Below are positions 33,108 through 60,087 of a stretch of DNA of 64,000 nt, one piece after another. The notes beneath the pieces were generated by a model that was not told the DNA's origin, searched no databases, and saw only the letters and a list, made by a program, of their open reading frames with translations. The stretch's first letter is position 1, and every line of letters begins with the position of its first letter. Source of the stretch: Paenibacillaceae bacterium (lineage in GTDB: Bacteria > Bacillota > Bacilli > Paenibacillales > NBRC-103111); contig JAQSYI010000003.1 in NCBI GenBank assembly GCA_029256185.1, positions 202,409 through 266,408 on the forward strand, in the 5' to 3' direction. Made by a program: the position numbers and the translations under genes.

Positions 33108-33164
33108 CTTATATCAGGCCGCAAAGCGGAGGCCTCTAAAATATTTGGGGATTGCTTTAATATT
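33108..33164 (-). promoter_or_regulatory. Promoter of the GH106-GH110 operon with the shared 21-bp-spaced direct repeat
   Basis: CTCTAAAAT-atttggggattg-CTTTAATAT at 33134-33163; TG-a-TATAAG -10 on the minus strand at 33108-33113. Confidence 0.6.
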
Positions 33165-33192
33165 TTAAGAATGCGGCAATCCCCGCATGGCT

Positions 33193-34869: not shown

Positions 34870-34882
34870 GTATGGACCTCCT

Positions 34883-36610: not shown

Positions 36611-36715
36611 CGCTTCCCTGTCTTTTTTTCTGAATGATACCGCAAGTTATATTACAGCCCTTCGCAAGACGCCAAAAAAGAAGGCGGATGCCTCCCTTTT
36701 TGCCGGTATGCAGCT

Positions 36716-39219: not shown

Positions 39220-39230
39220 GGAGTTCCTCC

Positions 39231-40184
39231 TTACCAGATTTGCCCGTCGAATTTTTTGGCTGTCTGATTCGCGGCAATTAACAGGATTAAACCGATGAAA
39301 GATTTGAACAGGCCGACAGCCGTAGCCAAGCCGTAGCGCATTTCCTGAATGCCCACGCGGTACACCCAGGTGTCCAAAATATCGGAGGCTTCCCGGTTCA
39401 TGGCGTTGCTCATCATAAATACCTGATCGAAGCCCACATCCAGAATGTGGCTTAGCCGCAAAATCAGCATCAGGATAATGACGTTCCGTATCCCCGGAAG
39501 CGTGATATGCCACAGCTGCCTGGTCTTGGAGGCCCCGTCCACCACAGCCGCCTCATACAAGCTGGGGTCCACCCCGGCAATGGCCGCCAAATAGACGATA
39601 GCTCCCCAGCCCATGGAATGCCACAGATCCGTGGACACCAGCAGGGTGCGAATCCAGCCCGGCTCCGTCAGGAAAAAGACCGGGTCCATGCCCAACTGCT
39701 TCAGAATCAGATTGAACAGTCCCTCTCCCGGGGCCATAAAGGCAATCAGCAGACCGTAAATGATAATCCACGAGATAAAATGGGGCAAATAGCTGATGGT
39801 CTGCACCAGCTTCTTGAACCAGCCGAAGCGGACCTCATTTAACATCAAGGCCAGAAGAATCGGCGCCGGAAACACGAACACCAGCTTGTAAAAGGCGATC
39901 ATGATGGTGTTGCCCAGCAGTTCGGCGAAATACACACCTTCAAAAAACATTCTGAAATTATCCCAGCCCACCCACGGGCTGCCCCACACGCCTTCGGTCA
40001 GGCGGTAATCCTTGAATGCAATCAGAATGCCCCCCATAGGCACATACTTGAACAGCGTAAAGTAAACCAGACCGGGGAGCAGCAGCACATACAGCATGGC
40101 GTTCAGGCGGAACGGACGCAGGCTCCGGTTCAAGGCCGATGCCCGCAGCCCGGCCGACAGCTTGGCAAAAGTTGCATTTATCAT
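39231..40184 (-). CDS. ABC permease (LplB/YteP-like)
   Basis: Start re-called at ATG 40184. FKYVPMGGILIAFKDY, YLPHFISW, EAA motif LYEAAVVDGAS and ATAVGLFKS. Confidence 0.92.
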   Translation of the reverse strand: MINATFAKLSAGLRASALNRSLRPFRLNAMLYVLLLPGLVYFTLFKYVPMGGILIAFKDYRLTEGVWGSPWVGWDNFRMFFEGVYFAELLGNTIMIAFYKLVFVFPAPILLALMLNEVRFGWFKKLVQTISYLPHFISWIIIYGLLIAFMAPGEGLFNLILKQLGMDPVFFLTEPGWIRTLLVSTDLWHSMGWGAIVYLAAIAGVDPSLYEAAVVDGASKTRQLWHITLPGIRNVIILMLILRLSHILDVGFDQVFMMSNAMNREASDILDTWVYRVGIQEMRYGLATAVGLFKSFIGLILLIAANQTAKKFDGQIW

Positions 40185-40209
40185 GGGCTTCACCCTCCTC
40201 TCCGCAGCA

Positions 40210-42902: not shown

Positions 42903-43322
42903 TTATTCTAGTTGAAAGCTTTCTGTTTTTAAGTTGCAATAATACCGTCCTTTGATAGCCTTAAACCTCAACACACAGTAGTCTGGATCGGTCACCCCTC
43001 CTTTGTAAAACATGGTATCGCCGATTCTCCAAATGTCCTGCTTGACATCCGTATCCTCCAACACATCCACGGTACCAATGAGCATAACTCCTTCATAACG
43101 AAAGCGTCCCTTGTTATAAAAATAAATGCTTGCTTTCTCATTTTCTTGGTATTGGCTTACCCGCAGGGAAGATGTATTTGTTGTAAAATAATAACAGTTT
43201 CCATCTATTTTGCGCGGCATAAGCATGGCCTTCATGTTTGGGAAGCCATCCTCATCTATCGATGCAATAAAAGCAACCTTTTGCTTCCCAATGAACTCAA
43301 TTAGTTGGTCTTTTGTTATCAT
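42903..43322 (-). CDS. Pyridoxamine 5'-phosphate oxidase-like FMN-binding protein (general stress protein 26 family)
   Basis: Start re-called at ATG 43322. ASIDEDGFPNMKAM, YFTTNTSS, ASIYF and GVTDPDYCVLRF. The DNA is AT-rich. Confidence 0.85.
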   Translation of the reverse strand: MITKDQLIEFIGKQKVAFIASIDEDGFPNMKAMLMPRKIDGNCYYFTTNTSSLRVSQYQENEKASIYFYNKGRFRYEGVMLIGTVDVLEDTDVKQDIWRIGDTMFYKGGVTDPDYCVLRFKAIKGRYYCNLKTESFQLE

Positions 43323-43416
43323 CAAGGTAAATTCCTTTCTATCCTCATACACATTTATAATTAATCTAAAATTCATGGACGCTGTTTCAATATTATTGTA
43401 AGTGTAACACAATAAA

Positions 43417-43458
43417 CAGGGCTGAGACAGATACAATTCTGCATCTGTTTCAGCCCTG
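43417..43458. terminator. Long hairpin downstream of the giant glycosidase gene
   Basis: CAGGGCTGAGACAGAT ... ATCTGTTTCAGCCCTG; the minus strand continues TTTATT. Confidence 0.55.
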
Positions 43459-43554
43459 GACAACCTTTTGATAAAATACATATAAGGACGGGACCGGGTG
43501 CTTTTGGGGGAGCTCCGAATGAGAAAGGGCTCCCCTAGGCGGGAGGCTTCTCCC

Positions 43555-46500
43555 TCATTCCTGGGACATGCTGCTCTGTGTTACCTGTACAATAACAGCT
43601 TCACTGACGGTTACTCCCGCGGCATTCTCCAGCTCGGCACGATATTCATAGCTGCCTGGAGGTTTGCCGGTGATCGTCGTGGCTGCCGCCTGGGCCTGGG
43701 GCGTGAGCTCTGCCAGCGTCTGCGTGTCCACCAGCACGCCGTTCTCATACAGACGATAGGTGGCTCCATTCGTTCCCCACCACATGTTCATCGTGACGGT
43801 ATAGCTGCCGTCGCCGTCCCAGTTATCCTGGGAGAGCACAGGCTGGGCCGGTGCCGCATCTGTAACGTTGACGCTCCATTCCTCACTTCTTGTCGTGCCG
43901 CTTTCATTGGTCAGCTCAGCATAATAACGGTATACGCCGTTATTGCGTCCCCTTATATGGGTCTGGGCAAACTGGGCCTGGGGAGTATGGGCGGTCAACT
44001 GCCGGCTGTCAATCAACTGACCGTTCTCATACAGCTTATATTCGCTGCCGTTATTGCCCCACCACATATTCATGGAAATATTATAGTCCCCGTCTTGGAG
44101 TCCGTGGTCCACTCCATTGTCATCCGACAGCACCGGCTTGCCCGGAGCCCCTTCGGAATCGGGCGCCGCCTGTCCTGCTGATTCATTCATAAAACCCCAA
44201 CGGGGAATGAAGGAGCCTCCCCGCGCCTTGCTTCCCGTACCCCAGAATGGGGCAAAGGCGTAGCTGCCCGATTCCACCTGTCCTGCCTCCCTTGTCCAGT
44301 AGGAGGTGCCCTTCCCCCCGGTTCCGGCATCCTGGATGGCGAAGGCGAAGCTGCTCTCATGCACCTGTCCCGCCTCCAGACCCAGCAAGCTGTTCTTCAG
44401 CTCCGGCACTGTATTCCAAGACAGGGCAATATCATATACGGTGGTTTTGCCCGCATCGTCGCGGCTAACCTTGATTCTCCCCTCCGAGCCCGTGGAGGCA
44501 GTGGCGTCTATGGGCCCCAGCGGAGCAGGCAGATCCGCATTGGTCGGATAATAGGTTTGCTTGTTGGTTCCCGGCGCAGCCTGCCGGTGCAGCTCGGGGA
44601 TCTCCCCTTGCGCCATTGTTCCGATAAACAGGTAATCCATGTTGGCAGAGGTGGCCTTGGCATAGTGGGAACGACCCAGCAGCAGATCATCCGGGTTGTT
44701 CGTCAGCACGTCGAAGGCCAGCTGCACGCTGTCGGCATTGAAGGGAAAGGCGTAAGGGTCCTCAGCAAAGGGTTTGTTGGACAACTGCATTTCGTCCGGC
44801 ACAACCGCCCTGAAATAGAAATTGTCTTCATCCCATGCGGTTTTTACGGTGTAAACCACATTGTCCGACTGCTGGGGATTCTCCAGAATATCACCGATCT
44901 TGCTCGGGTCCATAATCAGCTCCAGATAATCCACGCTGCCATTGCTCACCATCGTGACCGGCAGTACGCTGCTCCAGTCCTCCGCCGTATGCTCATCCAT
45001 CCGGATGGTCTTCTTGGGCGCATAAGCGACCTGCACAGTCTGCTGTCCGGAGAATGCAGAGACCGTCTGTCCCGCTGCATTCAGCCGCTCAAATATATAC
45101 CGCACCGGATAACGGTTCCATTCATTCACGGCCGTTTCACTGGCGGGGAAGATCAGCCGCCGTTTCTCTCCCGGCTGGAGCTGCCGCACCTCCATGACAG
45201 TGCCGGCCAGCTGCCAGCCCTCCGGCGCCTGTACAGCAAGCCGGCCGTCTATGGTCTCCGGGGTGACATTCTCCACCTCGAACTCCAAGGCAGCATCCGC
45301 CGCCGTAACCGGCTTAAGCAGAGATAACGGACTGACGGACACAGGCTCCGTATAATCGAACCGGGCAGTCCGCAGCCGTTCCTTCAATTCCGCAGGGGAC
45401 AGCGAGGACACCAGATAGAAGGTTTCCCACGGCTTCAACTGCAGGACGGCCTGCTCAGCGCTGCCGTCGGAAACCAGGCGGCCCAGATAATCGTAGATTT
45501 TGATCCCCGCGGCGTTCTCCAGCTTGACTGTTCCGTTATACGGCTCCTCTGCATAGAGGGCAGCCGTAGCCTGACCGTCCTGCCGTTGGAACAGGAAGCC
45601 CCAGGTGGACTTCTCGACCGGGTACAGCTCCTCCAGAAGCTTGCTGTCCTCCAGGAAATGGGTCATGGCCGAATAGGCGATCACCCCCGGCTTGGGAGCG
45701 CGGGAAGCCGTGTCATACAGATTGAAGGCATCCCCGGAATAGGTCAGGTCCGCCGATAGGGAGAACCAGAATACATGCAGTGGGGTTTCCCCGGCGGCCA
45801 GCATATTCAGCAGATAGATGGGCGCAATCGTGCGTGCCACTCCATAGGGACGCTCCTCCGCAGGAAAATGGGCAAAATCGTACGGCTCCGCCGTTCCCAG
45901 CTCGGTCTGCCACATCCCCCCTTTCCCCTGCCCCTTCGATTCTGTTTCATCCATAATTTTCTGCAGGCTGATCATGGCGAATTTCTCCGGGTCGGGCAGA
46001 CCGTATGCATGGTTCACAGAGCCGTCCACATAGCCGGTGTCCGGCGAACCCTTGGCGTAGAGAATGTCCCGGTTGTACATGGCCGAGCCTCCGCCGATCA
46101 GCATCACATCGGGATACTCGGGCTTGACCCGCTCCCAGATCAGCTTGGCCATCTCCCGGTAATCCTGAGCCTCGCCCGTCTTCCAGGTCCATCCATGAAT
46201 CCATGGCTCGTTCCAAATCTCCCAGTTCTTCACCAAATCCTGCAGCGGAGCGATAGTGTGGTACACCATCTCCGCTTGGGCAGCAAGATCAAGGGGCCTG
46301 TTCTGATGCCGGGACAGGTTGGGCATGCCGGGAACCGGCATCACGTTCCAGGCCATGTTGTAATTAATATATCCCAAGGAGCTGACGCCGTGCTCCTGCC
46401 AGTCCAGCACCTCCTGTCGGGCTGCCTGTATCTGCGCATCAGTCCAGTACTTGCCTGGCTCGGGATTGACGATGGTGGGATCAACCTTATCAATCGCTCT

Positions 46501-49500
46501 CTTCCACTTGACCCCTATTCTTTCTGCAATGGTCTGGGCCAGCTCCTCGTTGCCCACCCGCAGGTCCAGGCCGAACGGGGATTGCTCCCGGACTCCCTCG
46601 GCCGCCGGATGGAGCAGGCCAAAGGCCAGCTCCTTGCTCCCTGAGACAGAGCCGCTGCTGCCGTCGATCACTTCCACCTTCACCTTATAGTAATCGCCCT
46701 GGTCAAGCGCTTGGAGCGGTACAGTCACTCTTTGGGTTGCATTCACAGCCAGACTGAACGGGGCTGTCTGCTCCAGCACCTGCTCGGTTCCCCTGGAATA
46801 GACCGAGAGCCTCACCGTTCCTCCGGCGCTATGGGGATAGCTGTTGCGGATTTCCGCCACAACCGCCGGAGGCTGCTGCCCCTCCTGCAGCACATATAGT
46901 CCTGTAGGGTCGGACAATTCCACGCCATCCACAAGCAGCTTGTTCTGGATAACCGCTTCCCCCGGCAATTCGTAGACGGCCAGATCATCGATGGCATAAG
47001 CCTCATCCGTCCCACCCGTGTCCACCCGCACGGCAAAACGAAGCTCGATATTGCTGATATGCCGCTGTCCGCCATTGGGAATAATCTTGAACCTGAAGGA
47101 GGGGATATCCTCCTCTGTCACCGGCAGCAGAGCGCCATCCCCGCTGCGGTAGGCGGCTGTCTCCATCAGCGGCTGCTCCCCGGTGGGGAAGCGGGGGATC
47201 AGAGCATTGTCGTAATTGCCGAATTGAATGCCCGCCTTGATATCCTTGGGAACCGCCTTGCTGCTGGCGCCGGTGCGGGCCAGCTTGAAGCGGAACACAA
47301 ACTCCACCGGTGTGTCCCCTACCTGGCGGTCATAAATCCGATTAATCCGATTCAGAAGGCTGCCGCTTGTAATCCGGGCCGTAAACAAGCTGCCCAGATT
47401 GGAGCCCAAGGAAGCATCACGCAGCTCCAGCGCTGGATTGCCGTTCATCTCCACAATGGCTTGGGAGCCCCCGGTGTTGGCCTGCTGCAGCGTGAACAAT
47501 CCTGCGCCATCCCCGAAGCCGGGATCGAGCACATCGGCCAGCAGATTCACCGGCTCCTCTTCCTCCGCCTCCTCGATGGTGAGCAGATACGGATAATCCG
47601 TGGCCTGCAGGCGAAGATTCAATGTATTGCCGGTGCTGCTGTTCACCTGGACGGGTACCTCCATATTGTTAATGGGATCATAGACCGTAACTGCCGCCGC
47701 TGTTCCCTTTATACCGGATAACTGCAGCGTGTATTCCTCGGGAGCCAGATTCCGGGTCACATCACGAGTCATTACATAATAAGGAATGACGAATTTGTGG
47801 TCATTGACCTGATAGGGAAGAACAGTGAACAACTCCCGGTTATACAGCGCCGGATGCTCCACCGTGCCGTCTCCGGCAAACTGGTAGTTTCCGTGAGTAT
47901 CTGTAATGGAATCCACCTGCAAGGGGCGGGTGGCTGTCAGCTGCGGATCAAGCCCCTCTTCCATCTTGGATGCCATACGCCCAATGACAGACAGGGCGGG
48001 CGAAGTGTAGGCGGCATCATCCTGAGGGTAGGAGCTGTTGGTGCGGGAGTATTCCAGGAAGCTGTCCGACATAATGCCCAGCCACATGTCTCCTCCGGCA
48101 GCTCCGTACAGATACAGCTTCTCCACTCCTTTATTCAGGAAGAAGGGGTAGTAACGGGACGTTGTCTTCTCCTTCAGCTTCATAGCCTGGGTGTGATCTG
48201 TTATTCCCGTCTCATTGGGCGCGATGCCCACCTCGGTAATCCATACAGGCGTGGGATTACTGGCCCGCGCATAGCGTCCATGCAGCACACGGTTCACCGG
48301 TGCAGTGAACGGCCCCATGTCCCGGACCATGGTTTCTGTCTGGATGGCTGTGGCGAAATACTCAGGAAACAATTCCGTATATGCGGGAACATAGGCATCT
48401 GGCGCCCCCAGAGCATTCAGCTTGGTCCCGGCCGTCTCATTGGCCGGGAAGGTTTTCCTCCCTGAATAGGGATGCTTGTTGATCGCCCTGATCCGGTCAG
48501 GCTCCTGCGAGGAGGCGGGCCAGGGGATGGTATTGGCAAAGCCGTCGGTTATGCTTACTCCCTGGAACAAGTCGGGATGGGAAGCGGCATAATCTGCGCT
48601 GGCGCGCACCAGGTTGGCCCATATGCTCCGCTCGTCATAGGTGTATGGAGCCGGATTGTAATATTTGTTGATATACAGATAGTTGGAGCCGAAGCTCAGC
48701 TCATTCCAGATCTCCAGGTCAAACCCTCTGTCCTGGCCTTGCTCCGTCCCCAGCTCACTGCCCACAAACCTGGCGACCGTGTCCATGTAGCGGGTCCAGC
48801 CCTGCATGGTCTCCAGATATTCGGGGCTGTCGGGCACGGAGAACGGCAGATACTTCAGGGTGGCCAGGGTAACCTGCGCGCCTGCCGCCAGGGCTTGGGG
48901 CAGGGGCTTGGATAACGTCACTGTCTGCTGGTCAACCGAGGTGATCAGCGCTTCGGCCGCCCAATAACCGGTGAGATTGGACAAGCCGCTTTTGCCCGCG
49001 ACCAGGCCGGACGTATTATTAAGCTGAAGCTCACTGGCTCCCACAGCCGCGGACACCGCTACGGTCCGGGTCGTGGACAGCATGGGACCGGGAATCCCCT
49101 GATGGGCGTTAAGCAGGATCAGCGGCCGGATATTCCAAGTCTTGCATGCCTGGAGCATCGCCTGCAGCTTGGCCTTCTGACTGGGCAGCAACCGGGTTTC
49201 ATCCGCATAATCCACGCTGCTCCAGCCGATCTCAATCCGCACCGTACGAATCCCGTTCTTGGCCAGCATGCGCACGATCAGCTCCGGATTTTCCTGGTTC
49301 AGGTTAAGAACCATCCCGATCCCTTCCAGGAACTGTCCGGCCGGCACTGTCTCCAGATAGGCGCGCCAGGGCTGCAGCCAGTGGGAATGGGAGCCGAAGG
49401 GAATGCCGGTGAAATAAGCGGGATCCGTGTAGGAGCCGGCCAGCCCCTGCAATGCGGTGAGCGTCGAGCCTGCGGGAGCGTTGGCTGCCGCGGGCACAGC

Positions 49501-49662
49501 TTGGGAAGCGGCGGCGCCTGCAGCTGTGGCTGTAATATCCTGGATAAATGCTGCTGCGTCCGAAGCGGCAGGCGCAGACGCGGCGGCGATTCCGCCGAAA
49601 GCCTGGGCAAACAATAGCAACGAAACCAGCAGGACCGGCAGAAAGCGTTTACTTATTGTCAT
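43555..49662 (-). CDS. ~2035-aa secreted multimodular protein with two clan GH-A-like catalytic modules, an Ig-like module, a CBM9/DOMON-like module and two C-terminal Ig-like repeats
   Basis: Start re-called at ATG 49662 (signal peptide [28 protein letters not shown]). Module 1: LEIWNEL and VWITEVG. Module 2: WEIWNEPW and MWQTELG. Also [19 protein letters not shown] and two repeats of PVLSxDN..DGxY.(I/V).MNMWWG.NG..Y.LYENG. Confidence 0.8.
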
Positions 49663-49704
49663 AGAGTGAACTCCCTCTTCCCTTTTTGAAATAAATGCCA
49701 TTCA

Positions 49705-51522
49705 TCATAACGGTTCATCCCCGCCCGCAAGCAGACGCACCTCCACCAATGTTCCTTCGCCTGCCGCTGATGTATAATAAAGTCCGCAGTCCATTCCATA
49801 TTTCAGCTGCAAGCGCCCATTGACATTCTTGATCCCGTAGGAAGCGGTCAGCTCAGCAGAGCGCCCGCTGCGAAACAGGTCCTTGATCGCCTTCAGGCGT
49901 TCCGCCGGAATGCCTTTGCCGTTGTCGGAAACCGTCAGCACAACAACATCCCCCTCCATTCTGCCATTGATTTCGATATGTCCCTTGTTCGACATTTGCA
50001 GAATGCCGTGATGAAGCGCATTTTCCACCAGCGGCTGCAGGATCAGCTTCGGACACGTGAGCGCATGCAGGCTGTCCGGGACGGCAATTTCATAGGTAAA
50101 CCGGTCTCCATGGCGGATGCGCTCGATTGCCAGATAATGCTCAGCATGCTCAAGCTCCGCCTGCAGGGGAACCACATCCATCCCGCTGGACAGACTCAAC
50201 CGATAATATTTGCCAAGCTTGGAGATAATCTCGGTTATTTCCTCATAATCCCCGTCTTCTGCCAGCCAAATCACGGATTCCAGCGTGTTATAGAGGAAGT
50301 GCGGATTAATATTGGCCTGGAGCGCCCGCAGCTCCGCCTCCTTCTCCTTCTTGTGGCTCTCCTTCAACTGCATCAGCAGCTCGCTGATCCGGGACAGCAT
50401 GGCGTTGAAGGCATGGCTCAGCATCCCGATCTCATCCCGATTCTGCACCTCCGCCTTCACATCCAGATTGCCGGCCTTCACATCCTTCATCACCCCCGTC
50501 AGCCGCCTGATCGGCTTGGTTATGGAATACGATAATCCCCAGGTGACTCCAATGGACAGGAGAAGGATGATCACAATAAAATACCAGATTCCTTGAATGA
50601 TCCGCTCCTTGTCACGCAGCATCTCATTTACCGGCACAGCGCCGATAGTAATCCAATCCACTCCGCTTAACTCGTGAAATACGAAGAGATGAGAGCTTCC
50701 CCGGAATTCCGCAGCGAAGCTGCCCTCCCGCAGCTTTGCTGCAAGCGCCAAGGGCTCGGCATCCCCCCCTTCGTCATCCTGCAGCACGCCCGTGCCGGAT
50801 ATCATCCGATTGGCTTTATCCAGAACATAGAAGACCGTGCTGGCAGGTGTATTTATATTTTGGAAAAAATGCGAGATCTCCCGCTCACTTATGTTTATAA
50901 TCATCGTCGCCACATAGTTGATATTGGGGTCGTAGATATCTCTTACCAGCTTGATGAGGATTTCGCCGGCATGATTCTTGCTGGCATAATCCATGGAGTG
51001 GGCGGGCTCCCACATGACACCCCGGGTAAATTGTTCATCCCCATAGGAGTAATAATGCGCAATGGCGGCATCCACACCCGCCGCAAAATAGTCAAAATCC
51101 GCAGAGGGAATAAACAGCCGCTTCTGCTTGTTAACCAGCATAATGGAGACGATTCCCGGATCGGACAAAACGAACTTGTTGATCGCCGGATTGACCGTAT
51201 TCACTAAGTAGAACTCGTCGGGTGAAGCTTCAGCGGACATGCCCTCAAACAGCTTGATTATATTGGGATCGTTGAATACCAGATTGGAGGTATTCATAAT
51301 GGCGTTAATCCGCACATCGATCAGCTTGTTCGTCTGCTCCAGAATGTTGCTCATATTTTCCCTGGCCCGTTTCTCCAAGGAGTCGGAGAATACGCTCATC
51401 ATCCATTGCGCCGATATGAGCAGCGTCGTGACCATCACTGCTGCAGTCATCATAAAAATCCGGTAATAAATGCTGGTTCCCTTCAACAGAGGCAGGAAGC
51501 GCAAGCGACCCCATCGTTTCAT
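49705..51522 (-). CDS. YesM-family sensor histidine kinase
   Basis: LQANINPHFLYNTLE, ILQPLVENALHHG, DNGKGI and YGIKNVNGRL. Confidence 0.94.
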   Translation of the reverse strand: MKRWGRLRFLPLLKGTSIYYRIFMMTAAVMVTTLLISAQWMMSVFSDSLEKRARENMSNILEQTNKLIDVRINAIMNTSNLVFNDPNIIKLFEGMSAEASPDEFYLVNTVNPAINKFVLSDPGIVSIMLVNKQKRLFIPSADFDYFAAGVDAAIAHYYSYGDEQFTRGVMWEPAHSMDYASKNHAGEILIKLVRDIYDPNINYVATMIINISEREISHFFQNINTPASTVFYVLDKANRMISGTGVLQDDEGGDAEPLALAAKLREGSFAAEFRGSSHLFVFHELSGVDWITIGAVPVNEMLRDKERIIQGIWYFIVIILLLSIGVTWGLSYSITKPIRRLTGVMKDVKAGNLDVKAEVQNRDEIGMLSHAFNAMLSRISELLMQLKESHKKEKEAELRALQANINPHFLYNTLESVIWLAEDGDYEEITEIISKLGKYYRLSLSSGMDVVPLQAELEHAEHYLAIERIRHGDRFTYEIAVPDSLHALTCPKLILQPLVENALHHGILQMSNKGHIEINGRMEGDVVVLTVSDNGKGIPAERLKAIKDLFRSGRSAELTASYGIKNVNGRLQLKYGMDCGLYYTSAAGEGTLVEVRLLAGGDEPL

Positions 51523-51528
51523 GGCTCC

Positions 51529-53154
51529 CTACACCTGCTCTCTGAACTCGGTGGGATTCATACCGGTATGCTTCTTGAACAGCGTGCTGAAATAGAAGGG
51601 GTCCTTCACACCCACGGCAAATGCGACCTCTGAAACCCGCAGCGCAGTTCCGCTCAGATACTCCTTGGCCTTCTCCATGCGCACTTTCATGAGATATTCG
51701 GTAAAGGTGCTGCCGGTTTCCTGTCTGAATAATCTGCTGAAATAGGTGGGATGGACCTGCAGCTCTGCGCTTAGCACATTAATAGAAATATTCTCCATTT
51801 GATAGTGCTCATGGATGAAGGCGGCAGCAATTTCAATCAGCTTATTCTTCCTGCCGCCACGGCTGTCCAGAATATAGCGGGATATATCCGACAGCAGTGT
51901 CATCAGTCCCTGCTCTGCCTCATCCATGGTCTTGTATTGGGCGATTGCCTCGTATGGATTATAGTCCTTGCCGTACATATCCTTTAGCCGCAGGGCCGTT
52001 TGCAGGGATTGGGTGATGATGCGGGCGGTGCATTCCGTCACATAAAGCCGCATGTCGGTGATACTGAGTCCCCTTGCTTGCCGCAGCCGTTCGAAGAAAG
52101 CGTTGAGGGACTGCTTCAGCTCCGCCACTGCTCCGGAGCGGATCGCCGCTATGATCCTGTCCGGATATTCATCAGGAAATCCGGACCAGACCTGGCTTGG
52201 ATGGAGATGAATCAGGTCTACAGGAATAACCGCGTTCCTGCCGATCAGAAACCGGTATTCAATCGCCTCCCTCGCCTCCTTGTAGGATTCCGGGACGCCT
52301 GCATACCCGCTTTTCACCCCTCCCACTCCGATGCTTACCGTTACACGGCAGGCCTCCAGAATCCTCTGCCTGAGCTGATCGATACTATCGAATACCGTTT
52401 CGTCTGCGGCATGCTCCTCTGCATGCTGCAGAATCACCACAATTTGGTCATGCTCGCTGTGGAAGGACACTCCTTTGGAGGAATCGCTTACATAACGCTC
52501 CACCTCTCGCTCAATCAGTACAGACAAGAGTCCCTTGCCTACAGCAGGCTCCATCTTGCCGCCAAAGAGACTTTCCTCCGGTTGATCCGGCTCGATAATC
52601 AGTACGCAATAGCGTTCTCCGTCAAGAGGCAGCTGGAGCATCTGCAGCTTGGCAGGAACATCCCCCGCCGCCATGCGCCCGGACACCCATAGATTCAGGT
52701 AGCGCTCCCGCAGAAGAGGGAAGCTTGTTTCCAGAATGCTCATGGCCGCCTGAAGACGTCGCTCCTCCTGACGCATGGCCTCCGCCTCGTCCCTGGCCTG
52801 AAGAATGGCCTCCTCCAGCTCCCTTTTCGTGAAGGGCTTCAGCACATATTTCATCACCGACAGCTCCATGGCGCGCTTGGCGAACCGGAACTCCTCATAG
52901 CCCGACAGGAAGACGATCTTAATATGGGGATACAGCCTTCGTGCTTCCTCTGCCAGCTGAATCCCGTTCATCAGCGGCATATGAATATCCGTGATCAGGA
53001 TATCGGCGTAATCCCTGCGCAGCATCTCCAAGGCCTCAAGACCGTTCTCGGCCGAGCCTGCAAAGTCAAGCCGGAGGGACGGCCAATCCATCTTACCGGC
53101 AATTTTTTCCCGGATTATCCTTTCGTCATCAACCAGCAGCACTCGCATATTCAT
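51529..53154 (-). CDS. YesN-family response regulator
   Basis: VLLVDDE, ITDIHMP, YVLKP, VHPTYFSRLFRQETG and DPFYFSTLFKK. Confidence 0.95.
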   Translation of the reverse strand: MNMRVLLVDDERIIREKIAGKMDWPSLRLDFAGSAENGLEALEMLRRDYADILITDIHMPLMNGIQLAEEARRLYPHIKIVFLSGYEEFRFAKRAMELSVMKYVLKPFTKRELEEAILQARDEAEAMRQEERRLQAAMSILETSFPLLRERYLNLWVSGRMAAGDVPAKLQMLQLPLDGERYCVLIIEPDQPEESLFGGKMEPAVGKGLLSVLIEREVERYVSDSSKGVSFHSEHDQIVVILQHAEEHAADETVFDSIDQLRQRILEACRVTVSIGVGGVKSGYAGVPESYKEAREAIEYRFLIGRNAVIPVDLIHLHPSQVWSGFPDEYPDRIIAAIRSGAVAELKQSLNAFFERLRQARGLSITDMRLYVTECTARIITQSLQTALRLKDMYGKDYNPYEAIAQYKTMDEAEQGLMTLLSDISRYILDSRGGRKNKLIEIAAAFIHEHYQMENISINVLSAELQVHPTYFSRLFRQETGSTFTEYLMKVRMEKAKEYLSGTALRVSEVAFAVGVKDPFYFSTLFKKHTGMNPTEFREQV

Positions 53155-53185: not shown

Positions 53186-56100
53186 TTACTGTAAAAAGGG
53201 TGAGCCGTCAGCCATAATATTGGAAATTATTCTTGTCCCTCCCCTGCTCCGGTCTGTCAACAAGATCCCTCCGCCGGCTGCAGAACGAAGCTCACAATCA
53301 AAGCCCCGGCCTTGAAGCCGCCAGCCCTCCGGGCTCTTGCACACCGTCGGTCCAGGCTGCCCATCCGGTCCGTCCGCCGTCAGCAGCATGGCGAACAGCG
53401 GCTCCCCGCCCTCCGATGAACAGCGGATCTCGATTGTCCCCTGTCCGGACCGCTCCCCCTTGCTGCCCTTGGCCGGATAATCCGTACCCATGACCCTGAG
53501 CGGTCCGGGAGCCAGGATAGCCTGCAGACGCAGCCTGCAATCCTTCCCGTAGTCAGCCCGGACCTCTTGGTCCGTCCGCTCAATTGCGGTCTCCGCAAGG
53601 TGATATCTGACAGTCTGGGACAGCGGATCGGAGGCGGAATCTATAATAAGATAGGCTGCGGGAGCCAGCTGCACCACGGTGCGGTGATGGCATACGGCCG
53701 ATGGCATGGGAGCATACAAGGCATGCGCGGAGGTATGCATGATCACAGGAATGCAGGCGGTGGCGTAAGGAAACGGCCCCTGCACGTCATGGGATATTAG
53801 CCAGCCCCGGTTAAAGCTCCACAGATAATCAAGCGGCTCGTATCGGTCAAGCGTCCAGCGGCTGTGGCCGTCTGAAGTGAACTTCCTGCGCCCGGACTCC
53901 TGATCGTGGCCGAAAGCCGCATCTGCAATCAGGGATTTGCCTCTGGCAAAAAACTGGATGCTCCCATCGTCATTATGGTGATGGGCCCAGGCTCCTCCGC
54001 TGCGAAGGGCGAGCAGACATTCCTGACCATCCTCATCCACGTCCCGAAACATGAAGCCCAATCCCTGCACGTACTCATTGACCGGCTCACAGGCGATGGG
54101 CTGGACTGACGTTGGCGCCGGCGCTGCCGCAGCTGGCAGGTCAGCCCTATACGAGAGCCCATCCCCGTCCCGGGAAGCCGCAGTCGCCGGCGCATTGGGG
54201 GAGGGATCGCCGCCCATCTCCCGGTGCAGCCAGAGCAATCGGCCGGCCAGCTCCGGGTAATGGGGCTCCATCGCCTGCCCATAAGCGGCATAGAGGTACC
54301 TGTAGGTGTCCGGGTCGGCAAAATGGTCGCCAAAGGCAATCAGATGTCTTCTCCCGTGCATATGACCGGTTCGCGGAGTACGCATCTTCAAGGCAGCTCC
54401 TGCCAGTTTGGCCAACGCCGGATTGGCGAATTCGTCATCCACTCCATCCGCCCTCCGGCGAAGGAGCGTAGGCAGCACAGTATGCAGCACATGCTGGTAA
54501 TACGTATGGCTCTCCTCCCACAGACCGCTGTCCGGGTACATATGAAGCTCCAGCTGGCGGTGCCACATGCGGATAAACCATTCCTGCCACTGTCTTGCCT
54601 CCGGATGTTGGCTGAACACCTGAGCCGCCATTCCCGCAATATTGAACGCATCCGTGTAGAAGTTTTGGTTGCACATGCCGCCGTAAGCAAGACTGAGGGA
54701 ATCCGGGTTATCCGCCGGCAGCATGGACGCTTCTCCCGGATAGTAGTGAGGGGAAGCGGCCAGATGCACCAGAAAGCTGCAATGCGCTCTGATGAGGAGA
54801 AGCTGCTTCTCCGTCAGCAGATGTTGCTCCGCCAGCCATTCCAGGTAAAGCAGATTGGGGGCCGTTTCCCTGCTTACCACATAATTCGTATAGGCGCTGC
54901 CTGAGCCCTCCCAGAAGCCGTATATCCGCGCCTCCAGATAATCCGTGAGACAGCGGATGCGCTGCTGCTCCGAAGGGTTGGCCAGCCCGTTCTTCACGGC
55001 AAGGAGCAGATGCTTGTCGAGGACGAAGTGAGGGTAGCGAAAAGACGGCATCTCTCCCGCTTCAGCCCCGCCCTGCCGCTCCTGAGGCCAGTCAAACACC
55101 ATGCGGCACATATTTTGCAGCGGCATCAATCCGAACTGGGTATGCAGCTTGCGCAGCAGGACCTGCTGCCGCCTGTAGCGGCTGCGGTCCGGCCGGTACT
55201 CGAAATGGCCCAGAGCGGCGTCTTCGTCCGCCTGAAGCTGCCGGACTTGCCGAGCCTCGCGGAATTCCCGGACCTCCTGCGGCCTCCGTCCGTCCCCGCT
55301 TCCCTGAAGTCCCTCGGCTGCTCCGAATTTCCCGCCTCCTCCCGGCGGCAGCATCTTCGGCCAGTCTGCGGCAGCAAGGCCGTAGCTTCGCTCCCCTCCG
55401 CCGATCCAGCCCTCCACGCACAGATGCGGCTCGCACACCTGCCGCCCCCGCATCGGGATGCTCTCCGGCCCCGGCCTCCCATCAGCCTTCACTTCCGGCG
55501 GCACCTCCCTGCGGCTCCCCCTGTCACCCTGCGGCCACCTGCGGGTCCAAAGCTCCAGTTGATTCAGACGCGCCCCTCGCCAGCCTCCGCCCTCCAGGGC
55601 GAAGAAGCCGGCGCAATCGCCCTCCTGGAACCGGATTGCATAGCCATCCCGCAGATCGAACAGCTGAGAGTTTTGGGTCCAGCCCGCCAGGCGGGCATGT
55701 CGCTGGTCGAATTGCCGCTGCGGCCGGATCATCGTATATCCGGCTGTAGCATCCAGCATATGAAGCGACTGCGGGAACTCCGTGGGTCCGAAATCCCAAA
55801 CCAGTTGATCCCCTGGCGATGCGCTGAAGCGCTCCTTGATGCGGGCAAACGGCAGTCCCGCGTCCACGATCACATCTGCCTCATAGTAGCCGTCTGCGCC
55901 GATAAGAGCCTGGTAGCGGTAATGAATTCTCAGCGGCCCCTTTTCCAGAAGGGCGCCGGAGGTATGTCTGACAGGCTGGCGTGTATCGAAGAAGGTGCCG
56001 CCCCGCCAGCTCCCCTGAGCCGCCTTGAAGCGGAGCACCGGTCCGGGAACCGCCAGCTCCATATGCTCTCTGCAGCCCTCTGCGTATTGCCGCTGCTGCT

Positions 56101-56500
56101 GCGAGACCTGGATGCTCATAAGCCCGTTGGACAGCGTCTGCGTTTTGCCGGCCTCTTCAACAGTGCATTCCCCCGCGATTGCGCTTGGCGCCTTCCCTTC
56201 GTCAGCCTGCACCGGTGCCCCATTGGCCGCCTCGCTCTGCCTCCCGGTATCATCGGCAGTCAGGCTGAGCCGTTGGAAGGGCTCCAGCTTAACCAGCAGG
56301 AAGCCGGTGCCCGGCTTAGAGCGGGAGGACTGAAGGGGAAACTCCCCGCCCGCGCATCGGTCCTTCAGCAGCATTTGCTCCGGTGAATCCGGCGGTATTG
56401 GAACCTCAATCACTTGTATATCATGGGCCAAGCCGCAGGATTCCGTTATTTCTATAAGATAAGGGTTCATCTGAACGTGAAGCATGCTTTTAGCTATCAT
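53186..56500 (-). CDS. Large cytoplasmic protein with C-terminal heparinase II/III-like fold (putative oligosaccharide lyase)
   Basis: GLWEESHTYYQH, IAFGDH, and ALRSGGAWAHHHNDDGSIQFFARG.SLIAD. No signal peptide. Family assignment is by motif resemblance only. Confidence 0.6.
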   Translation of the reverse strand: MIAKSMLHVQMNPYLIEITESCGLAHDIQVIEVPIPPDSPEQMLLKDRCAGGEFPLQSSRSKPGTGFLLVKLEPFQRLSLTADDTGRQSEAANGAPVQADEGKAPSAIAGECTVEEAGKTQTLSNGLMSIQVSQQQRQYAEGCREHMELAVPGPVLRFKAAQGSWRGGTFFDTRQPVRHTSGALLEKGPLRIHYRYQALIGADGYYEADVIVDAGLPFARIKERFSASPGDQLVWDFGPTEFPQSLHMLDATAGYTMIRPQRQFDQRHARLAGWTQNSQLFDLRDGYAIRFQEGDCAGFFALEGGGWRGARLNQLELWTRRWPQGDRGSRREVPPEVKADGRPGPESIPMRGRQVCEPHLCVEGWIGGGERSYGLAAADWPKMLPPGGGGKFGAAEGLQGSGDGRRPQEVREFREARQVRQLQADEDAALGHFEYRPDRSRYRRQQVLLRKLHTQFGLMPLQNMCRMVFDWPQERQGGAEAGEMPSFRYPHFVLDKHLLLAVKNGLANPSEQQRIRCLTDYLEARIYGFWEGSGSAYTNYVVSRETAPNLLYLEWLAEQHLLTEKQLLLIRAHCSFLVHLAASPHYYPGEASMLPADNPDSLSLAYGGMCNQNFYTDAFNIAGMAAQVFSQHPEARQWQEWFIRMWHRQLELHMYPDSGLWEESHTYYQHVLHTVLPTLLRRRADGVDDEFANPALAKLAGAALKMRTPRTGHMHGRRHLIAFGDHFADPDTYRYLYAAYGQAMEPHYPELAGRLLWLHREMGGDPSPNAPATAASRDGDGLSYRADLPAAAAPAPTSVQPIACEPVNEYVQGLGFMFRDVDEDGQECLLALRSGGAWAHHHNDDGSIQFFARGKSLIADAAFGHDQESGRRKFTSDGHSRWTLDRYEPLDYLWSFNRGWLISHDVQGPFPYATACIPVIMHTSAHALYAPMPSAVCHHRTVVQLAPAAYLIIDSASDPLSQTVRYHLAETAIERTDQEVRADYGKDCRLRLQAILAPGPLRVMGTDYPAKGSKGERSGQGTIEIRCSSEGGEPLFAMLLTADGPDGQPGPTVCKSPEGWRLQGRGFDCELRSAAGGGILLTDRSRGGTRIISNIMADGSPFLQ

Positions 56501-56515: not shown

Positions 56516-57397
56516 CTACTTTTCCGCCGCCGATATGACGAAATCCTGCATCAGGAAGCGTTGCGATACGAAGTACAGGATAACCGGAATCAATGCCATG
56601 AACAAGGCGACACACATGATATACGACCACTGCACGTAGAACACCCGGTTAAAGGTGGACAGCGCGACCGACAGCGTCCGGGTAGCCGCATCGTTGCCTA
56701 CATACATGAGCGGGCCGAAGAACTCGGACCAGTGCCCGTTCACCTGCTGGATAATCACCATAATCAGCGGCGCCTTGATATTGGGCAGCACGATCCGCCA
56801 CAGGATGGTCAGAGCGCCCGCCCCGTCCATTTTGGCCGATTCGAACAAGCTGATGCTTAAGGTGAGCATAAACTGCCGCAGCAGGAAGATGGTGCCGGGG
56901 CCTCCTCCCAATGCCGGAATCAGCAAGGGAAGGTATGTCCCCGTCCAGCCCCAATCGGCGAACATGACATAATTGGGGATGAACATCACCGTGCTGGGGA
57001 TCATCATGGTGGCCAGCAGGAAGAAGAACAGCTTGTTCCGGTAAGGAAACCGGAAGAAGGAGAAGCCGTAAGCGATCAGCAAGGAAGATACAATAAAGAA
57101 GATGGTGCCGAATACGGTATAGAACACCGTATTCTTCAAGGCGGACAAAAACTGAAAATCCTGCTGGGAAAAGGCCTGCTCAAAGTTGGTCCACAGAAAT
57201 TGCCGGAACCATTGGCCTCCAAGCGTGTACGTATCACTTTGCAGCGCAGCGCTGACCATCCATAGAAAGGGAACCATAAAGACAAACGAGCATCCGGCAA
57301 TCAACACATAAATGACGGTCATTTCCAGTATGCTGCGCCTGTTCTTCCGCTTGCGTCCAATGGAAAACGCCGTTTGCACCCTGCCAGCTGTTTCCAT
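56516..57397 (-). CDS. Carbohydrate ABC permease (MalG-type)
   Basis: AYGFSFFRFPYRN, FLLRQF and EAA motif LFESAKMDGAG. Start at 57397 (RBS GAAAGGA) or 57418. Confidence 0.92.
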   Translation of the reverse strand: METAGRVQTAFSIGRKRKNRRSILEMTVIYVLIAGCSFVFMVPFLWMVSAALQSDTYTLGGQWFRQFLWTNFEQAFSQQDFQFLSALKNTVFYTVFGTIFFIVSSLLIAYGFSFFRFPYRNKLFFFLLATMMIPSTVMFIPNYVMFADWGWTGTYLPLLIPALGGGPGTIFLLRQFMLTLSISLFESAKMDGAGALTILWRIVLPNIKAPLIMVIIQQVNGHWSEFFGPLMYVGNDAATRTLSVALSTFNRVFYVQWSYIMCVALFMALIPVILYFVSQRFLMQDFVISAAEK

Positions 57398-57401
57398 AGG
57401 G

Positions 57402-58370
57402 CTATCGTCCTTTCGCATTCATATTCTCGTAATACACCCAAGCGCCGGACGAGCGGAATACAAGCGCCGCAAATCCTGCAATAATGGCAAACAGCACCCA
57501 GGAGATGGCAGCGGCATAGCCGAATTGGAAATCCACGAATGCCGCCTTGTACAGCTTCAAAAATATAAAGTAGGTGGCGCCGTTAGGGTTGCCCCAGGAC
57601 CGGATATCGTTGTTGTTGCTGGTCATCACATAAGCCTGGTCAAAAGCCTGGAGATTGGCGATAATGCTCATGATCAGATTGTACAGGATAATCGGCGAAA
57701 TCATCGGCATGGTGATACGGGTGAATCTCACCCAACGGTTGGCTCCATCTATTTCCGCCGCTTCATACAGATTGCTCGGGACCCCTTGAAGCGCCCCCAG
57801 ATAGAGAATGATTCCCGTTCCCGCCATAAAGCAGTTCATGATTACGAAGCTGGGAATAACGGTCGCTTCATTCTCCAGCCAATGAAGCGAAGGAACTCCG
57901 AATACCGACAACGCTTTGTTCAGAATGCCGCTTTCGGCAAAGATCAGTCTCCATAGCACAGCGCTGGCCACACCGGGAATTACCGCCGGCAGATAGAAGA
58001 GGGTCCTCCACAGAGGCAGTCCCTTCACCTTCTGGTTCAGCAGCACGGCAAAGAATAACGCTGTACACAAGGTTGCGGGAACGTTCAGCAGGGCATACCG
58101 GAAGGTGACCAGGATGGATTTCCAGGTCTCCGGGTCCCGCAGCAGCAGATCGGCAAAATTGCTTGTTCCCACCCACTCCGGCGCGCTCAGCACATCATAC
58201 CTGGTCAACGCGTAATACATGGACATGAAGAACGGCCGGATAAAAAACAGGGAACAGCCCACAACCCAGGGAAGAATGAACAGAATACCGGCCAGCGCTT
58301 CCTTTTGGGACATGCTCCATCTCAGTCTCCGGATTCCGGACCGGTATGTTTTATTTGCTTGCGGCATCAT
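57402..58370 (-). CDS. Carbohydrate ABC permease (MalF-type)
   Basis: FILPWVVG, RTLFYLP and EAA motif LYEAAEIDGAN. Confidence 0.92.
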   Translation of the reverse strand: MMPQANKTYRSGIRRLRWSMSQKEALAGILFILPWVVGCSLFFIRPFFMSMYYALTRYDVLSAPEWVGTSNFADLLLRDPETWKSILVTFRYALLNVPATLCTALFFAVLLNQKVKGLPLWRTLFYLPAVIPGVASAVLWRLIFAESGILNKALSVFGVPSLHWLENEATVIPSFVIMNCFMAGTGIILYLGALQGVPSNLYEAAEIDGANRWVRFTRITMPMISPIILYNLIMSIIANLQAFDQAYVMTSNNNDIRSWGNPNGATYFIFLKLYKAAFVDFQFGYAAAISWVLFAIIAGFAALVFRSSGAWVYYENMNAKGR

Positions 58371-59865
58371 ATTTGGTCCAGGCTTCCTTGTAGTCGTTAT
58401 ACTGCTGCTCGAACAGCGGCGGAATAATATCCTTGTAGTTCAGCTTGCCCTTGCGCAGGTCCGGAATCTGCGCGTTCAATTTCTCCAGCGGCTTCTGTCC
58501 TGCCGGATACTGCTTCAGCATTTCCTGCGGCGGCTGTTGAACCGGCAGAGAGCCTTCCTTGATCAGATGCTCCCCCAGCTCGATCATAATCTGCGCATTG
58601 ATCTCTCCCACCTGCTGCTTCAGCTTCGCCAGGGCTGCATTGTCGGTGAAGGAGGGCAGTGTTCCGACGGAGGACAGATCATAATTGGCACTTTCATATT
58701 CAGGTGAGTGGAGGAATTTCACGAATTCCCAAGCCGCTTTCGGATAGGGTGTTGCGGCGAAAATTTTGGGACCTTGACCGGTGAAGCCGTGAACCCTGAA
58801 TTGATCCTCCATTCCTTCCTTGTGGGGATACATGGTGAAGGCGTATTCAATTGGCTTTTTTCCCGCCTTTTCCCGCTCGGGGTTGGCCTTGGCATCGAAA
58901 TAATCGAAGGCCCACGAGCCCATGCGGCGGATGACCACCTTCTCATTCTCGATATTGATGCCGTCCGCCTTCACATCCACATCAGGATGGGGAGCCACCT
59001 TATGCACCAGCGCCAGATCGCTCATGAATTGCAGCGCTTCTATTGCCTCCGGCTTCACAAAGTTGATGCCCGGCGCCATCATTCTGCCGTTCTCGATCAG
59101 ATCGGTATAGACCCCCACCGATGCCGCCCAGTCCGTCCGTCCCCAGCCGAAATTGTCATCCGTCCCGTAAATATCCGTTTTGCCATCTCCATTGGTATCC
59201 ACAGTGGCCTTCTTCAGAAGCTCCGCGTAGTTGTTCCAAGTCCAGTTCTTGTAGCTGGGATCATCGAAGGACTTGGGGATCTGGTCGTAAATCCCGTATT
59301 TCTTGGCCAGTTCCACGTTATACCAGAGTCCGTACACAACGCTTCCCGTAGGCAAATAATAAATTTGTCCATTATAAGGAAGATATTGGAATATATCCTT
59401 CTGTGCCCAGGGCCAGTTCTTGAGCCCGTCCCGCTCAATCCAATCATTGTAGGACAAAAACACCTTCTTGTCATAAAATTGATTGTAGCCGTCACCTCCA
59501 AGATCAAGCACGGAGATGTCGGCCGTCTGCTTGGCTGCCACCTTGGACAGCATGAATTGACGCAGCTCGTTATCCTTCAGACCTACCTCCTCCACCTCTA
59601 CCTTAATGCCGAACTTCTTCTCGAATTCCTGCGCCGGTTTATCCAGAACCGACTTGGAGCCCCAGACCTTTAAGGAGGCTCCCTTCTCCACTAGCTCCTT
59701 CGCTTCCCCTGCAGCCGATGCCGCAGGAGCGCTTGCTGCAGCCGTGCCTGCCGGGCTTGGCTCACTGCCGCTCTTGTCGCTGCTGCACCCTCCCAGCACC
59801 AATCCTGAGATCAGAACAGACGCTGTCAACCATTGAACCGTTTTCATTTTTGACGGATATCGCAT
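58351..59865 (-). CDS. Carbohydrate ABC solute-binding lipoprotein
   Basis: Lipobox LGGC and Ala-rich linker; LWYNVELAKKYG, WTWNNY and KAAWEFVKFL. Confidence 0.92.
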   Translation of the reverse strand: MRYPSKMKTVQWLTASVLISGLVLGGCSSDKSGSEPSPAGTAAASAPAASAAGEAKELVEKGASLKVWGSKSVLDKPAQEFEKKFGIKVEVEEVGLKDNELRQFMLSKVAAKQTADISVLDLGGDGYNQFYDKKVFLSYNDWIERDGLKNWPWAQKDIFQYLPYNGQIYYLPTGSVVYGLWYNVELAKKYGIYDQIPKSFDDPSYKNWTWNNYAELLKKATVDTNGDGKTDIYGTDDNFGWGRTDWAASVGVYTDLIENGRMMAPGINFVKPEAIEALQFMSDLALVHKVAPHPDVDVKADGINIENEKVVIRRMGSWAFDYFDAKANPEREKAGKKPIEYAFTMYPHKEGMEDQFRVHGFTGQGPKIFAATPYPKAAWEFVKFLHSPEYESANYDLSSVGTLPSFTDNAALAKLKQQVGEINAQIMIELGEHLIKEGSLPVQQPPQEMLKQYPAGQKPLEKLNAQIPDLRKGKLNYKDIIPPLFEQQYNDYKEAWTKYDAASK

Positions 59866-60087
59866 GCTTACCCTCCTTATTGTTTCTGCTTCTATGATAC
59901 CAGCAGCGCCTTTCGGACAGAATAGAGCATTTTAGTATTTCCTTTAAGATGTTGATGTGCCGGTGAAGCTGATCTGGTCTTGCTTCAAACCGCCGCGTAC
60001 CGGAAAAAGATTCAAACTTGAGGAATGATGTTACCAATATTGTGAACACTAGGTTAATAGCTAATAATTCTACAATGAGGTGATCCC

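Follow-up and report, generated by a model that had tools for sequence, protein, structure and literature searches.

Tandem catalytic modules are well known in the secreted polysaccharidases of Firmicutes, and the chemistry of clan GH-A of the glycoside hydrolases (GH) is textbook knowledge. The Caldicellulosiruptor enzyme CelA (GH9-GH48), for instance, carries two catalytic modules together with binding modules in one secreted polypeptide. Family GH39 also holds plant-glycan enzymes such as β-xylosidases, and its PROSITE signature reads W-x-F-E-x-W-N-E-P-[DN]. PslG of Pseudomonas aeruginosa, a GH39 enzyme that is encoded in the psl biosynthetic operon and has an N-terminal membrane anchor, cleaves the Man/Rha/Glc polymer Psl (PMC4928890). 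Here, we analysed a 64,000-nt stretch of DNA (hereafter, the window) from contig JAQSYI010000003.1 of a Paenibacillaceae bacterium, the minus strand of which encodes a giant protein of 2035 aa (43555..49662) with two modules of GH-A type. The layout is that of CelA, with two catalytic modules and binding modules in one secreted polypeptide, but the two modules of the giant protein are both GH-A barrels of a divergent or unassigned kind, and the N-terminal one (module 1) comes from a family whose other members are found as single-domain proteins, encoded in the biosynthesis clusters of other phyla. Our analysis moderately favours a secreted depolymerase with two retaining GH-A barrels, which would be directed at an exopolysaccharide and would feed a conserved importer locus.

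The minus-strand open reading frame (ORF) is single and unbroken from 43555 to 49701 and contains two in-frame ATG codons near its 5′ end. A GAGGGAG sequence lies 8 nt 5′ of the ATG at 49662, the signal peptide, recognised by eye in the translated sequence, starts at the same ATG, and public gene calls use it for a 2035-residue product, followed by the stop codon. The alternative ATG at 49701 comes only 3 nt after the stop codon that ends the histidine kinase gene upstream. Because of the GAGGGAG spacing, the onset of the signal peptide and the identical start in the public gene calls, translation almost certainly begins at 49662, and the ATG at 49701 is unlikely to be used. An earlier note, made from the letters of the window alone, had described a giant secreted protein at 43555-49662; these coordinates and all the motifs that it listed were recovered exactly. 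Residue numbers given below count from the ATG at 49701, and subtracting 13 converts them to numbering from the ATG at 49662. In this numbering, the sequence quoted in the note for the beginning of its first domain is at aa 99. No SLH, LPXTG or other anchoring motif was found in the giant protein; judged from its sequence, the enzyme is therefore probably secreted without an anchor and released from the cell.

Fold and family of module 1

Module 1 (47554..49425, minus strand like all parts of the giant protein; aa 93–716) comprises a GH-A-type (β/α)8 barrel and a C-terminal β-sandwich, and is preceded by the signal peptide (49579..49662; aa 14–41, read from the sequence) and an Ala/Pro/Ser-rich linker (49426..49578; aa 42–92). 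An AlphaFold2 (AF2) model of aa 93–654 (pLDDT 87.5, pTM 0.90) showed eight strand/helix repeats in DSSP, and the remaining C-terminal part, aa 655–716, was placed by the family alignment only. In the model, strand 236–239 (strand 4) is followed by N241-E242, equivalent to N333-E334 of the protein, and E398, equivalent to E490, lies within strand 394–399 (strand 7). E334 (48702-48700), part of the EIWNEL motif (aa 330–335, 48714-48697), is the predicted acid/base, and E490 (48234-48232), part of the WITEVG motif (aa 487–492, 48243-48226), is the predicted nucleophile. E330, W332, N333, E334, H410, Y412, T489 and E490 were invariant in 76 module-1 sequences sharing 37–62% identity, with H410 and Y412 located in strand 6, and R155 (strand 2) and N198 (strand 3) were conserved in at least 95% of them. 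We take this set to be the classical GH-A constellation as established for the clan, and the window copy retained all 22 family-invariant residues. The presence of the barrel, of Asn-Glu after strand 4, of Glu in strand 7 and of the auxiliary residues indicated a retaining glycosidase of clan GH-A type, with the activity predicted from this modelled arrangement.

A β-domain of about 90 residues (48826..49104; aa 200–292, delimited by DSSP of the model) interrupts the module 1 barrel between strand 3 and helix 3, where it accounts for model strands 115–190, and it was kept in 74 of 75 module-1 homologues. Searches of Pfam, NCBIfam and PDB sequences with module 1 returned no match. A Pfam scan of 26 family members with E values up to 1 gave noise (Creatininase, DUF5640) and the accessory domains PA14 and Calx-beta, and no GH39. 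By sequence, module 1 thus appeared to fit neither GH39 nor any other family examined in Pfam, NCBIfam and PDB. No paper describing the family was found in our literature search, and GimA and GimB of Actinoplanes, considered as described relatives, proved to be ordinary GH5 enzymes and were rejected. Provisionally, on the comparison with Pfam, NCBIfam and PDB, we regard module 1 as a candidate new family of clan GH-A.

The search for module-1 homologues identified 1013 proteins. The best 120 of these were 53–62% identical over the full module and nearly all about 640–750 aa long; all of them were named “hypothetical protein” and none carried a catalytic Pfam domain. Among the matches listed, none exceeded 63% identity or 869 aa. 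Species-representative genomes contained 347 module-1 loci in at least eight phyla, with hosts including Cyanobacteria, Armatimonadota, Planctomycetota, Verrucomicrobiota, Abditibacteriota, Acetobacteraceae and Solirubrobacterales, among others; the best 80 of these 347 loci included none from Firmicutes. The homologues bear signal peptides, lipoboxes or N-terminal membrane anchors.

We called simple ORFs in about 75 distinct module-1 loci, clustered the neighbouring proteins and annotated the cluster representatives with Pfam. The most frequent neighbours were GT4 glycosyltransferases (28 loci) and Wzy_C-like membrane proteins, which fell into one homologous cluster (23 loci), followed by an ABC exporter (12), a Polysacc_synt flippase (11), a Bac_transf priming transferase (8), and Wzz/BY-kinase and UbiA (6 each). 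In 7 distinct loci, the Wzy_C-like gene immediately adjoined the module-1 homologue on the same strand. Pre-computed annotations of single contigs concurred with these exopolysaccharide-cluster neighbourhoods, and the pattern was seen across cyanobacteria, Alphaproteobacteria and Actinobacteria. This biosynthetic setting and the export of the products are shared by about one third of the module-1 loci with the PslG, PelA and BcsZ class of exopolysaccharide-operon glycosidases. The family resembles PslG in its niche, the exopolysaccharide cluster, and in its extracytoplasmic location with an N-terminal anchor (PMC4928890), but differs from it in lacking detectable sequence similarity and in containing the 90-residue inserted β-domain. 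The window copy of module 1 falls outside such clusters and sits in a catabolic locus.

The Wzy_C-like proteins beside module-1 homologues belonged to one homologous cluster in cyanobacteria, Acetobacteraceae and Solirubrobacterales, encoded at loci that include L001, L002/L008, L009, L055, L062, L066, L069 and L074. Wzy-type polymerases are normally very divergent, and a single homologous cluster, being unusual for them, suggested a mobile or ancient two-gene unit. At the Chamaesiphon locus L002/L008 (10243-12135), the genes after the homologue encode UbiA, a HAD phosphatase and a small protein of multidrug-resistance-like type, and PMT_2-type GT-C enzymes are encoded nearby; locus L005 (1-1423, 12777-14867) contained two GT87 genes. 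The UbiA, GT-C and GT87 neighbours resemble polyprenyl-phosphate-sugar (arabinan-like) pathways, which may hint at the chemistry of the polymer.

Module 2 and its conserved Paenibacillus locus

An exhaustive HMMER search of representatives with module 2 yielded 513 relatives, 25 of them with E values below 1e-30; it was used in place of an earlier word-index search, which had given 3 fragments only. The conserved core of this family corresponds to residues 921–1838 of the giant protein, and this extent implied that the barrel was inherited as one unit together with its Ig-like domains and a CBM9-like domain (CBM, carbohydrate-binding module). The core starts with an Ig-like β domain (46690..46941; aa 921–1004), continues through module 2 itself (45322..46689; aa 1005–1460), a remote GH39-type (β/α)8 barrel with a β-sandwich, and a NEW3/NPCBM_assoc-like Ig domain (45022..45321; aa 1461–1560), and ends with a CBM9/CBM74-like domain (44188..45021; aa 1561–1838). 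The NEW3/NPCBM_assoc domain is a weak, sub-threshold Pfam match in the giant protein, and the same region gave sub-threshold to significant Pfam matches in 8 of 21 module-2 family members.

Among solved structures, profile and fold comparison both placed BcGH39 (BACCELL_00856 of Bacteroides cellulosilyticus WH2, 5jvk) closest to module 2, with which it shares 18% identity. The module-2 family profile matched 5jvk_A with an E value of 1.1e-8, including the N-terminal β domain, and the alignment placed WElWNEP over WELWNEP and WqTElG over WVTEIG of 5jvk. In the giant protein, these motifs are WNEPW (from aa 1163, 46215-46201), with the predicted acid/base E1165 (46209-46207), and WQTELG (from aa 1264, 45912-45895), with the predicted nucleophile E1267 (45903-45901). 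The AF2 model of module 2 (pLDDT 93, pTM 0.91) placed N1164-E1165 after strand 4 and E1267 at the end of strand 7. Foldseek ranked 5jvk first (E 2e-19, TM-score 0.67), ahead of three PslG entries (TM 0.62–0.70, E ~1e-17), and the further matches were mainly GH39 xylosidases, to which the fold likeness was lower (TM 0.55–0.59), interspersed with GH5 (1nof) and GH30 (3gtn) xylanases and GH79. Most of the ten best matches were GH39, and 1nof and 3gtn scored within the range of the xylosidases. Module 2 has the same barrel and β-sandwich and the same N-E/E pair as PslG (5bx9, 4zn2, 9g17), but the identity is only 16–18%, its relatives reside in catabolic ABC-importer loci rather than in biosynthesis operons, and its fusion partners are Ig-like and CBM9-like domains within a protein about five times the size of PslG.

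The E-x-W-N-E-P acid/base region is also common to the GH39 β-xylosidases and the Pfam GH39 model, PF01229, but both modules remained under the gathering score of that model, module 2 with 13.0–15.9 bits against 26 and module 1 without a match. Within the module-2 family, 9 of 21 members matched PF01229, all of them sub-threshold. The N-E and the downstream E were both kept in 19 of the 21 members, whereas neither is left in the other two, P0136 and P0141 (WDNP/TR and WEDP/TA), a joint loss as expected of a functionally coupled residue pair; from their sequences, these two are likely non-catalytic pseudo-enzymes. The barrel with C-terminal β-sandwich and the significant profile similarity with aligned catalytic motifs place module 2 in a remote GH39-like clade of the PslG/BcGH39 type, an assignment by profile and fold. 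The looser GH39/GH5-like label of the earlier note could thereby be sharpened. Its central proposal, two GH-A catalytic modules in tandem with probably at least one unclassified GH family, was supported, and neither of the outcomes that it had named as refuting was observed: in the models, each module folded as a (β/α)8 barrel that carries one Glu of its pair at the end of strand 4 and the other at the end of strand 7, and hidden Markov models of established GH families gave no match for module 1 and only the sub-threshold GH39 match for module 2.

The C-terminal domains were the only part of the giant protein with an above-threshold Pfam match, namely ChitinaseA_N (PF08329), which scored 41.9 bits, with the cut-off at 21.2, in two stretches. 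It covers two Ig-like repeats (43570..44154; aa 1850–2044), also evident as an internal repeat, with MNMWWG motifs at aa 1877 and 1971 (44073-44056 and 43791-43774). Matches below threshold were GH39 (13 bits), CBM9 and NPCBM_assoc, and no match was returned for the giant protein by NCBIfam or by a whole-protein PDB sequence search. For aa 1561–1838, the Pfam CBM9_1 score was 17.2 bits, where 23.4 is the cut-off, and that model was also matched, always sub-threshold, by 13 of 21 relatives; the family profile matched CBM74 (7uwv, E 5e-5) and CBM9 (1i82, E 1.6e-3). Thus, of the C-terminal pieces proposed earlier, the MNMWWG Ig-like repeats were firmly recovered and the CBM9-like domain received weak support.

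An accessory domain (46957..47553; aa 717–915), absent from the earlier note, separates module 1 from the module-2 core. It gave no Pfam match and no other database match, was delimited by its BLAST colinearity with the N-termini of the module-2 relatives P0124 and P0126, and is probably carbohydrate-binding. P0124 (1354 aa) is colinear with aa 717–2040 of the giant protein at 61% identity and shares with it the accessory domain as well as both terminal repeats. It lacks module 1, and AEEAPPEPENLLSDRFDPGF directly follows its signal peptide. The module 1 region, aa 93–716, was covered by none of the 23 module-2 representatives compared, and the fusion of module 1 with module 2 looks unique. 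In a neighbour-joining tree (no bootstrap), module 1 of the giant protein fell within a group of Gloeobacterales, Leptolyngbyaceae and Chamaesiphon, a position that suggests lateral acquisition from a cyanobacterium-like donor. Taken together, the sequence comparisons point to the C-terminal core (aa 921–1838) as the ancestral enzyme and to module 1 as a lineage-specific capture, an aspect that the earlier note had not contained.

The giant gene follows directly, on the same strand, a sensor histidine kinase (dCache-HAMP-His_kinase) and an AraC-type response regulator (49705..53154), a 1104-aa cytoplasmic protein of a rare unannotated family (53186..56500) and an ABC sugar importer composed of two permeases and a solute-binding protein (56516..59865). 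The whole locus was syntenic in Paenibacillus donghaensis, where the solute-binding protein was 75% identical to the window copy, the two permeases 82% and 83%, a 1040-aa counterpart of the 1104-aa protein 53%, the AraC response regulator 59% and the kinase 65%. After the kinase, P. donghaensis encodes a module-2 protein of 1148 aa, which has a DUF1349-like N-terminus and lacks module 1. This protein and P0124 are the giant protein's closest relatives. The conserved Paenibacillus order is thus solute-binding protein, two permeases, 1104-aa cytoplasmic enzyme, AraC regulator, kinase and module-2 enzyme. This full synteny bore out the link to an adjacent ABC locus made in the earlier note; the “lyase” that the note had placed in that locus stayed unproven, without a Pfam or PDB match.

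The 1104-aa protein gave no match in Pfam, NCBIfam or PDB, nor did its family profile against PDB. Its family comprised 13 matches, with invariant motifs that include WEESHTYYQHV and GHHHNDDGS, and the window copy has no signal peptide. One homologue is named “Heparinase II/III-like” by JGI, and the protein is possibly a heparinase II/III-like, lyase-type enzyme, a label that is unproven. As relatives of module 2 are also about 1100 aa long, we considered the 1104-aa protein as a module-2 paralogue and rejected this on the lack of BLASTP similarity. Two candidate homologues, L088 (a truncated gene, the first on the contig of P0124) and a 1301-aa protein beside P0128, were likewise rejected on comparison.

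Substrate and role of the fused enzyme

The reading that we favour envisages two independent retaining (Koshland double-displacement) barrels in one secreted protein, with both the hydrolytic activity and the mechanism predicted from the residue arrangement. The core of aa 921–1838 would be the ancestral extracellular enzyme of the conserved Paenibacillus utilisation locus, and this lineage would have gained module 1 by insertion at the junction of signal peptide and mature N-terminus. Each module would cut a different equatorial glycosidic bond of one complex heteropolysaccharide, for which we infer endo action, and the CBM-like and Ig-like domains would hold the polysaccharide chain. The released oligosaccharides would be imported through the ABC system (56516-59865), and their breakdown would be completed in the cytoplasm by the 1104-aa protein, perhaps together with the nearby GH78 and GH106 rhamnosidases. 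The kinase/AraC pair would sense the oligosaccharides, and the genes would presumably be co-regulated. Because the nearest functional analogues of both modules are exopolysaccharide hydrolases, the substrate class would be a microbial exopolysaccharide, possibly a cyanobacterial one; this identity is presumed by analogy, and we give it close to, or slightly below, an even chance.

Several results weighed against this reading. With module 1, Foldseek ranked pyruvate kinases first (TM 0.25–0.33), because of the inserted β-domain: the A and B domains of pyruvate kinase likewise combine a barrel with a β-barrel domain inserted after barrel strand 3, but at an identity of 10–12% to module 1, the conserved residues of which are glycosidase-like, the likeness is topological only. 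The best glycosidase in that search was GH39 5jvk (E 3e-8), to which the overall fold match was weak (TM 0.40) and the sequence similarity not significant. Module-1 family profiles likewise gave no significant match against PDB (GH1, E 0.14; 5jvk, borderline at E 0.024), although the latter alignment, made with the broader profile, took in RIEIGW of strand 2 and, at the nucleophile, vWiTEvG. No relationship between the module-1 and module-2 families was detected by hhalign (probability 0.5%). The exopolysaccharide-cluster setting held for no more than that third of the module-1 loci; L006 and L007, the two closest relatives of module 1, had uninformative neighbours, and some copies in Armatimonadota and Abditibacteriota adjoined GH2 or DUF4838 genes in a seemingly catabolic setting. 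A scan for promoters and terminators gave counts not above those of shuffled sequence. The rhamnosidases (two copies of GH78 and one GH106), which are cytoplasmic and encoded near the giant gene, may belong to separate neighbouring loci with regulators of their own.

A narrower proposal is that module 1 represents an undescribed GH family of clan GH-A, distantly GH39-like and with the pyruvate-kinase-like inserted β-domain, whose members are dedicated processing hydrolases of a conserved Wzy-dependent exopolysaccharide system common to cyanobacteria, Acetobacteraceae, Solirubrobacterales and other groups. A soil Paenibacillus would then have captured a cyanobacterial-type copy and joined it to its PslG-like enzyme, and the resulting two-headed depolymerase would allow it to live on the matrix polysaccharide of phototrophic biofilms or soil crusts. 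We consider this proposal tentative and, taken as a whole, on the unlikely side.

Clearly less likely than a microbial exopolysaccharide would be, for an enzyme of unchanged architecture and chemistry, a plant or algal rhamnose-containing glycan as the substrate (rhamnogalacturonan, an arabinogalactan-protein or gum, or an ulvan-like polymer), with module 1 acting on a side-chain linkage. The abundance of plant-glycan-type genes in the window, two GH78 and one GH106 among them, fits such a substrate, as does a secreted β-helix protein with a faint rhamnogalacturonase-like match, but the rhamnosidases stand behind other sets of regulators and transporters. Similarly, the fold matches of module 2 include GH39 β-xylosidases, which act on plant glycans, but its structurally nearest enzymes are PslG and BcGH39 and not the xylosidases. 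The module-1 homologues that adjoin GH2 or DUF4838 in place of biosynthesis genes are set against the dominant conserved context of their family, which is Wzx/Wzy biosynthesis.

It is improbable that module 1 is not a hydrolase here and serves instead as a transglycosylase, a chain-length processor or a catalytically silent binding barrel that targets the GH39 module. Polymer processing is conceivable from the association of the family with a Wzy-like polymerase, and module 1 has no significant sequence link to characterised hydrolases; nevertheless, the catalytic N-E and E and the strand-6 His/Tyr are all among the invariant residues retained in the window copy. A binding-only role would not preserve invariant catalytic residues, and transglycosylating retaining GH-A enzymes still hydrolyse.

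Finally, an assembly chimera joining a cyanobacterial-type gene to a Paenibacillus gene, as might be suspected from the cyanobacterial nearest relatives of module 1 and the metagenomic source of the sequence, was rejected as highly improbable, because the exact 2035-aa product is encoded both by a JGI metagenome contig of 272 kb and by a 22-kb Logan contig (soil metagenome) from different assemblers, though possibly of one sample, the Logan contig spans 43000-50200 at 100% identity with no joints, and the guanine-plus-cytosine (GC) content is even at 0.58 over 44–50 kb, in addition to which the frame is continuous through a natural acidic linker (EEAEEEEP) resembling the mature N-terminus of P0124.

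Surroundings of the locus and biological meaning

The two GH78 α-L-rhamnosidases of the window (40210-42666 and 21967-24423, both minus strand; 818 aa each) were 82% identical, lacked signal peptides and belonged to different sub-loci. A separate utilisation locus at 27333-38278 (minus strand) included the GH106 rhamnosidase, a third kinase/AraC pair, a secreted 917-aa β-helix protein with a Golvesin_C domain, which is possibly a lyase or hydrolase, and a 520-aa lipoprotein with faint likeness to solute-binding proteins and no Pfam match. At 38347-40616 (minus strand), the listed ORFs of two ABC permeases (388 and 461 aa) overlapped one another and the GH78 gene, and their Pfam domains began only at about residues 208 and 250; translation of both probably begins well inside the listed ORFs, past the first start codon. 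A locus at 11605-17171 (minus strand) encoded a 761-aa GH94-type glycan phosphorylase, two ABC permeases and a solute-binding protein, and was followed by another kinase/AraC pair at 17296-20748.

On the 3′ side of the giant gene, at a distance of 73 nt, lies a gene for a small PNPOx-like flavoprotein (42903-43481, minus strand) with no evident glycan link. The only plausible terminator (42886-42865) was located after this gene, which may be co-transcribed with the giant gene. The GC content dropped to 0.41–0.46 at 60001-64000, where an MFS transporter and an FMN reductase are encoded, compared to 0.51–0.62 elsewhere in the window. A radical SAM/SPASM protein adjoining an MFS transporter (3469-6392, minus strand) was unrelated to the glycan loci.

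Three elements of this analysis are new: provisionally, an unannotated conserved family of GH-A type with an inserted domain and an association with biosynthesis clusters, a tie that was also absent from the earlier note; a GH39-like clade overlooked by standard models; and the fusion of both module types, which appears unique. The fused gene provides a clean case of cross-phylum domain capture into a conserved utilisation locus, and the fused enzyme and the module-2 clade are candidate tools against recalcitrant microbial exopolysaccharides, for biofilm dispersal and for the analysis of polymer structure. If module 1 is active, it would give a function to a large conserved family of “hypothetical proteins” (1013 proteins, 347 loci), and clan GH-A would gain a further sequence family. 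Stand-alone proteins of the module-1 family may be the PslG equivalents of a widespread, unstudied exopolysaccharide pathway, which would bear on the biology of cyanobacterial sheaths and biofilms.

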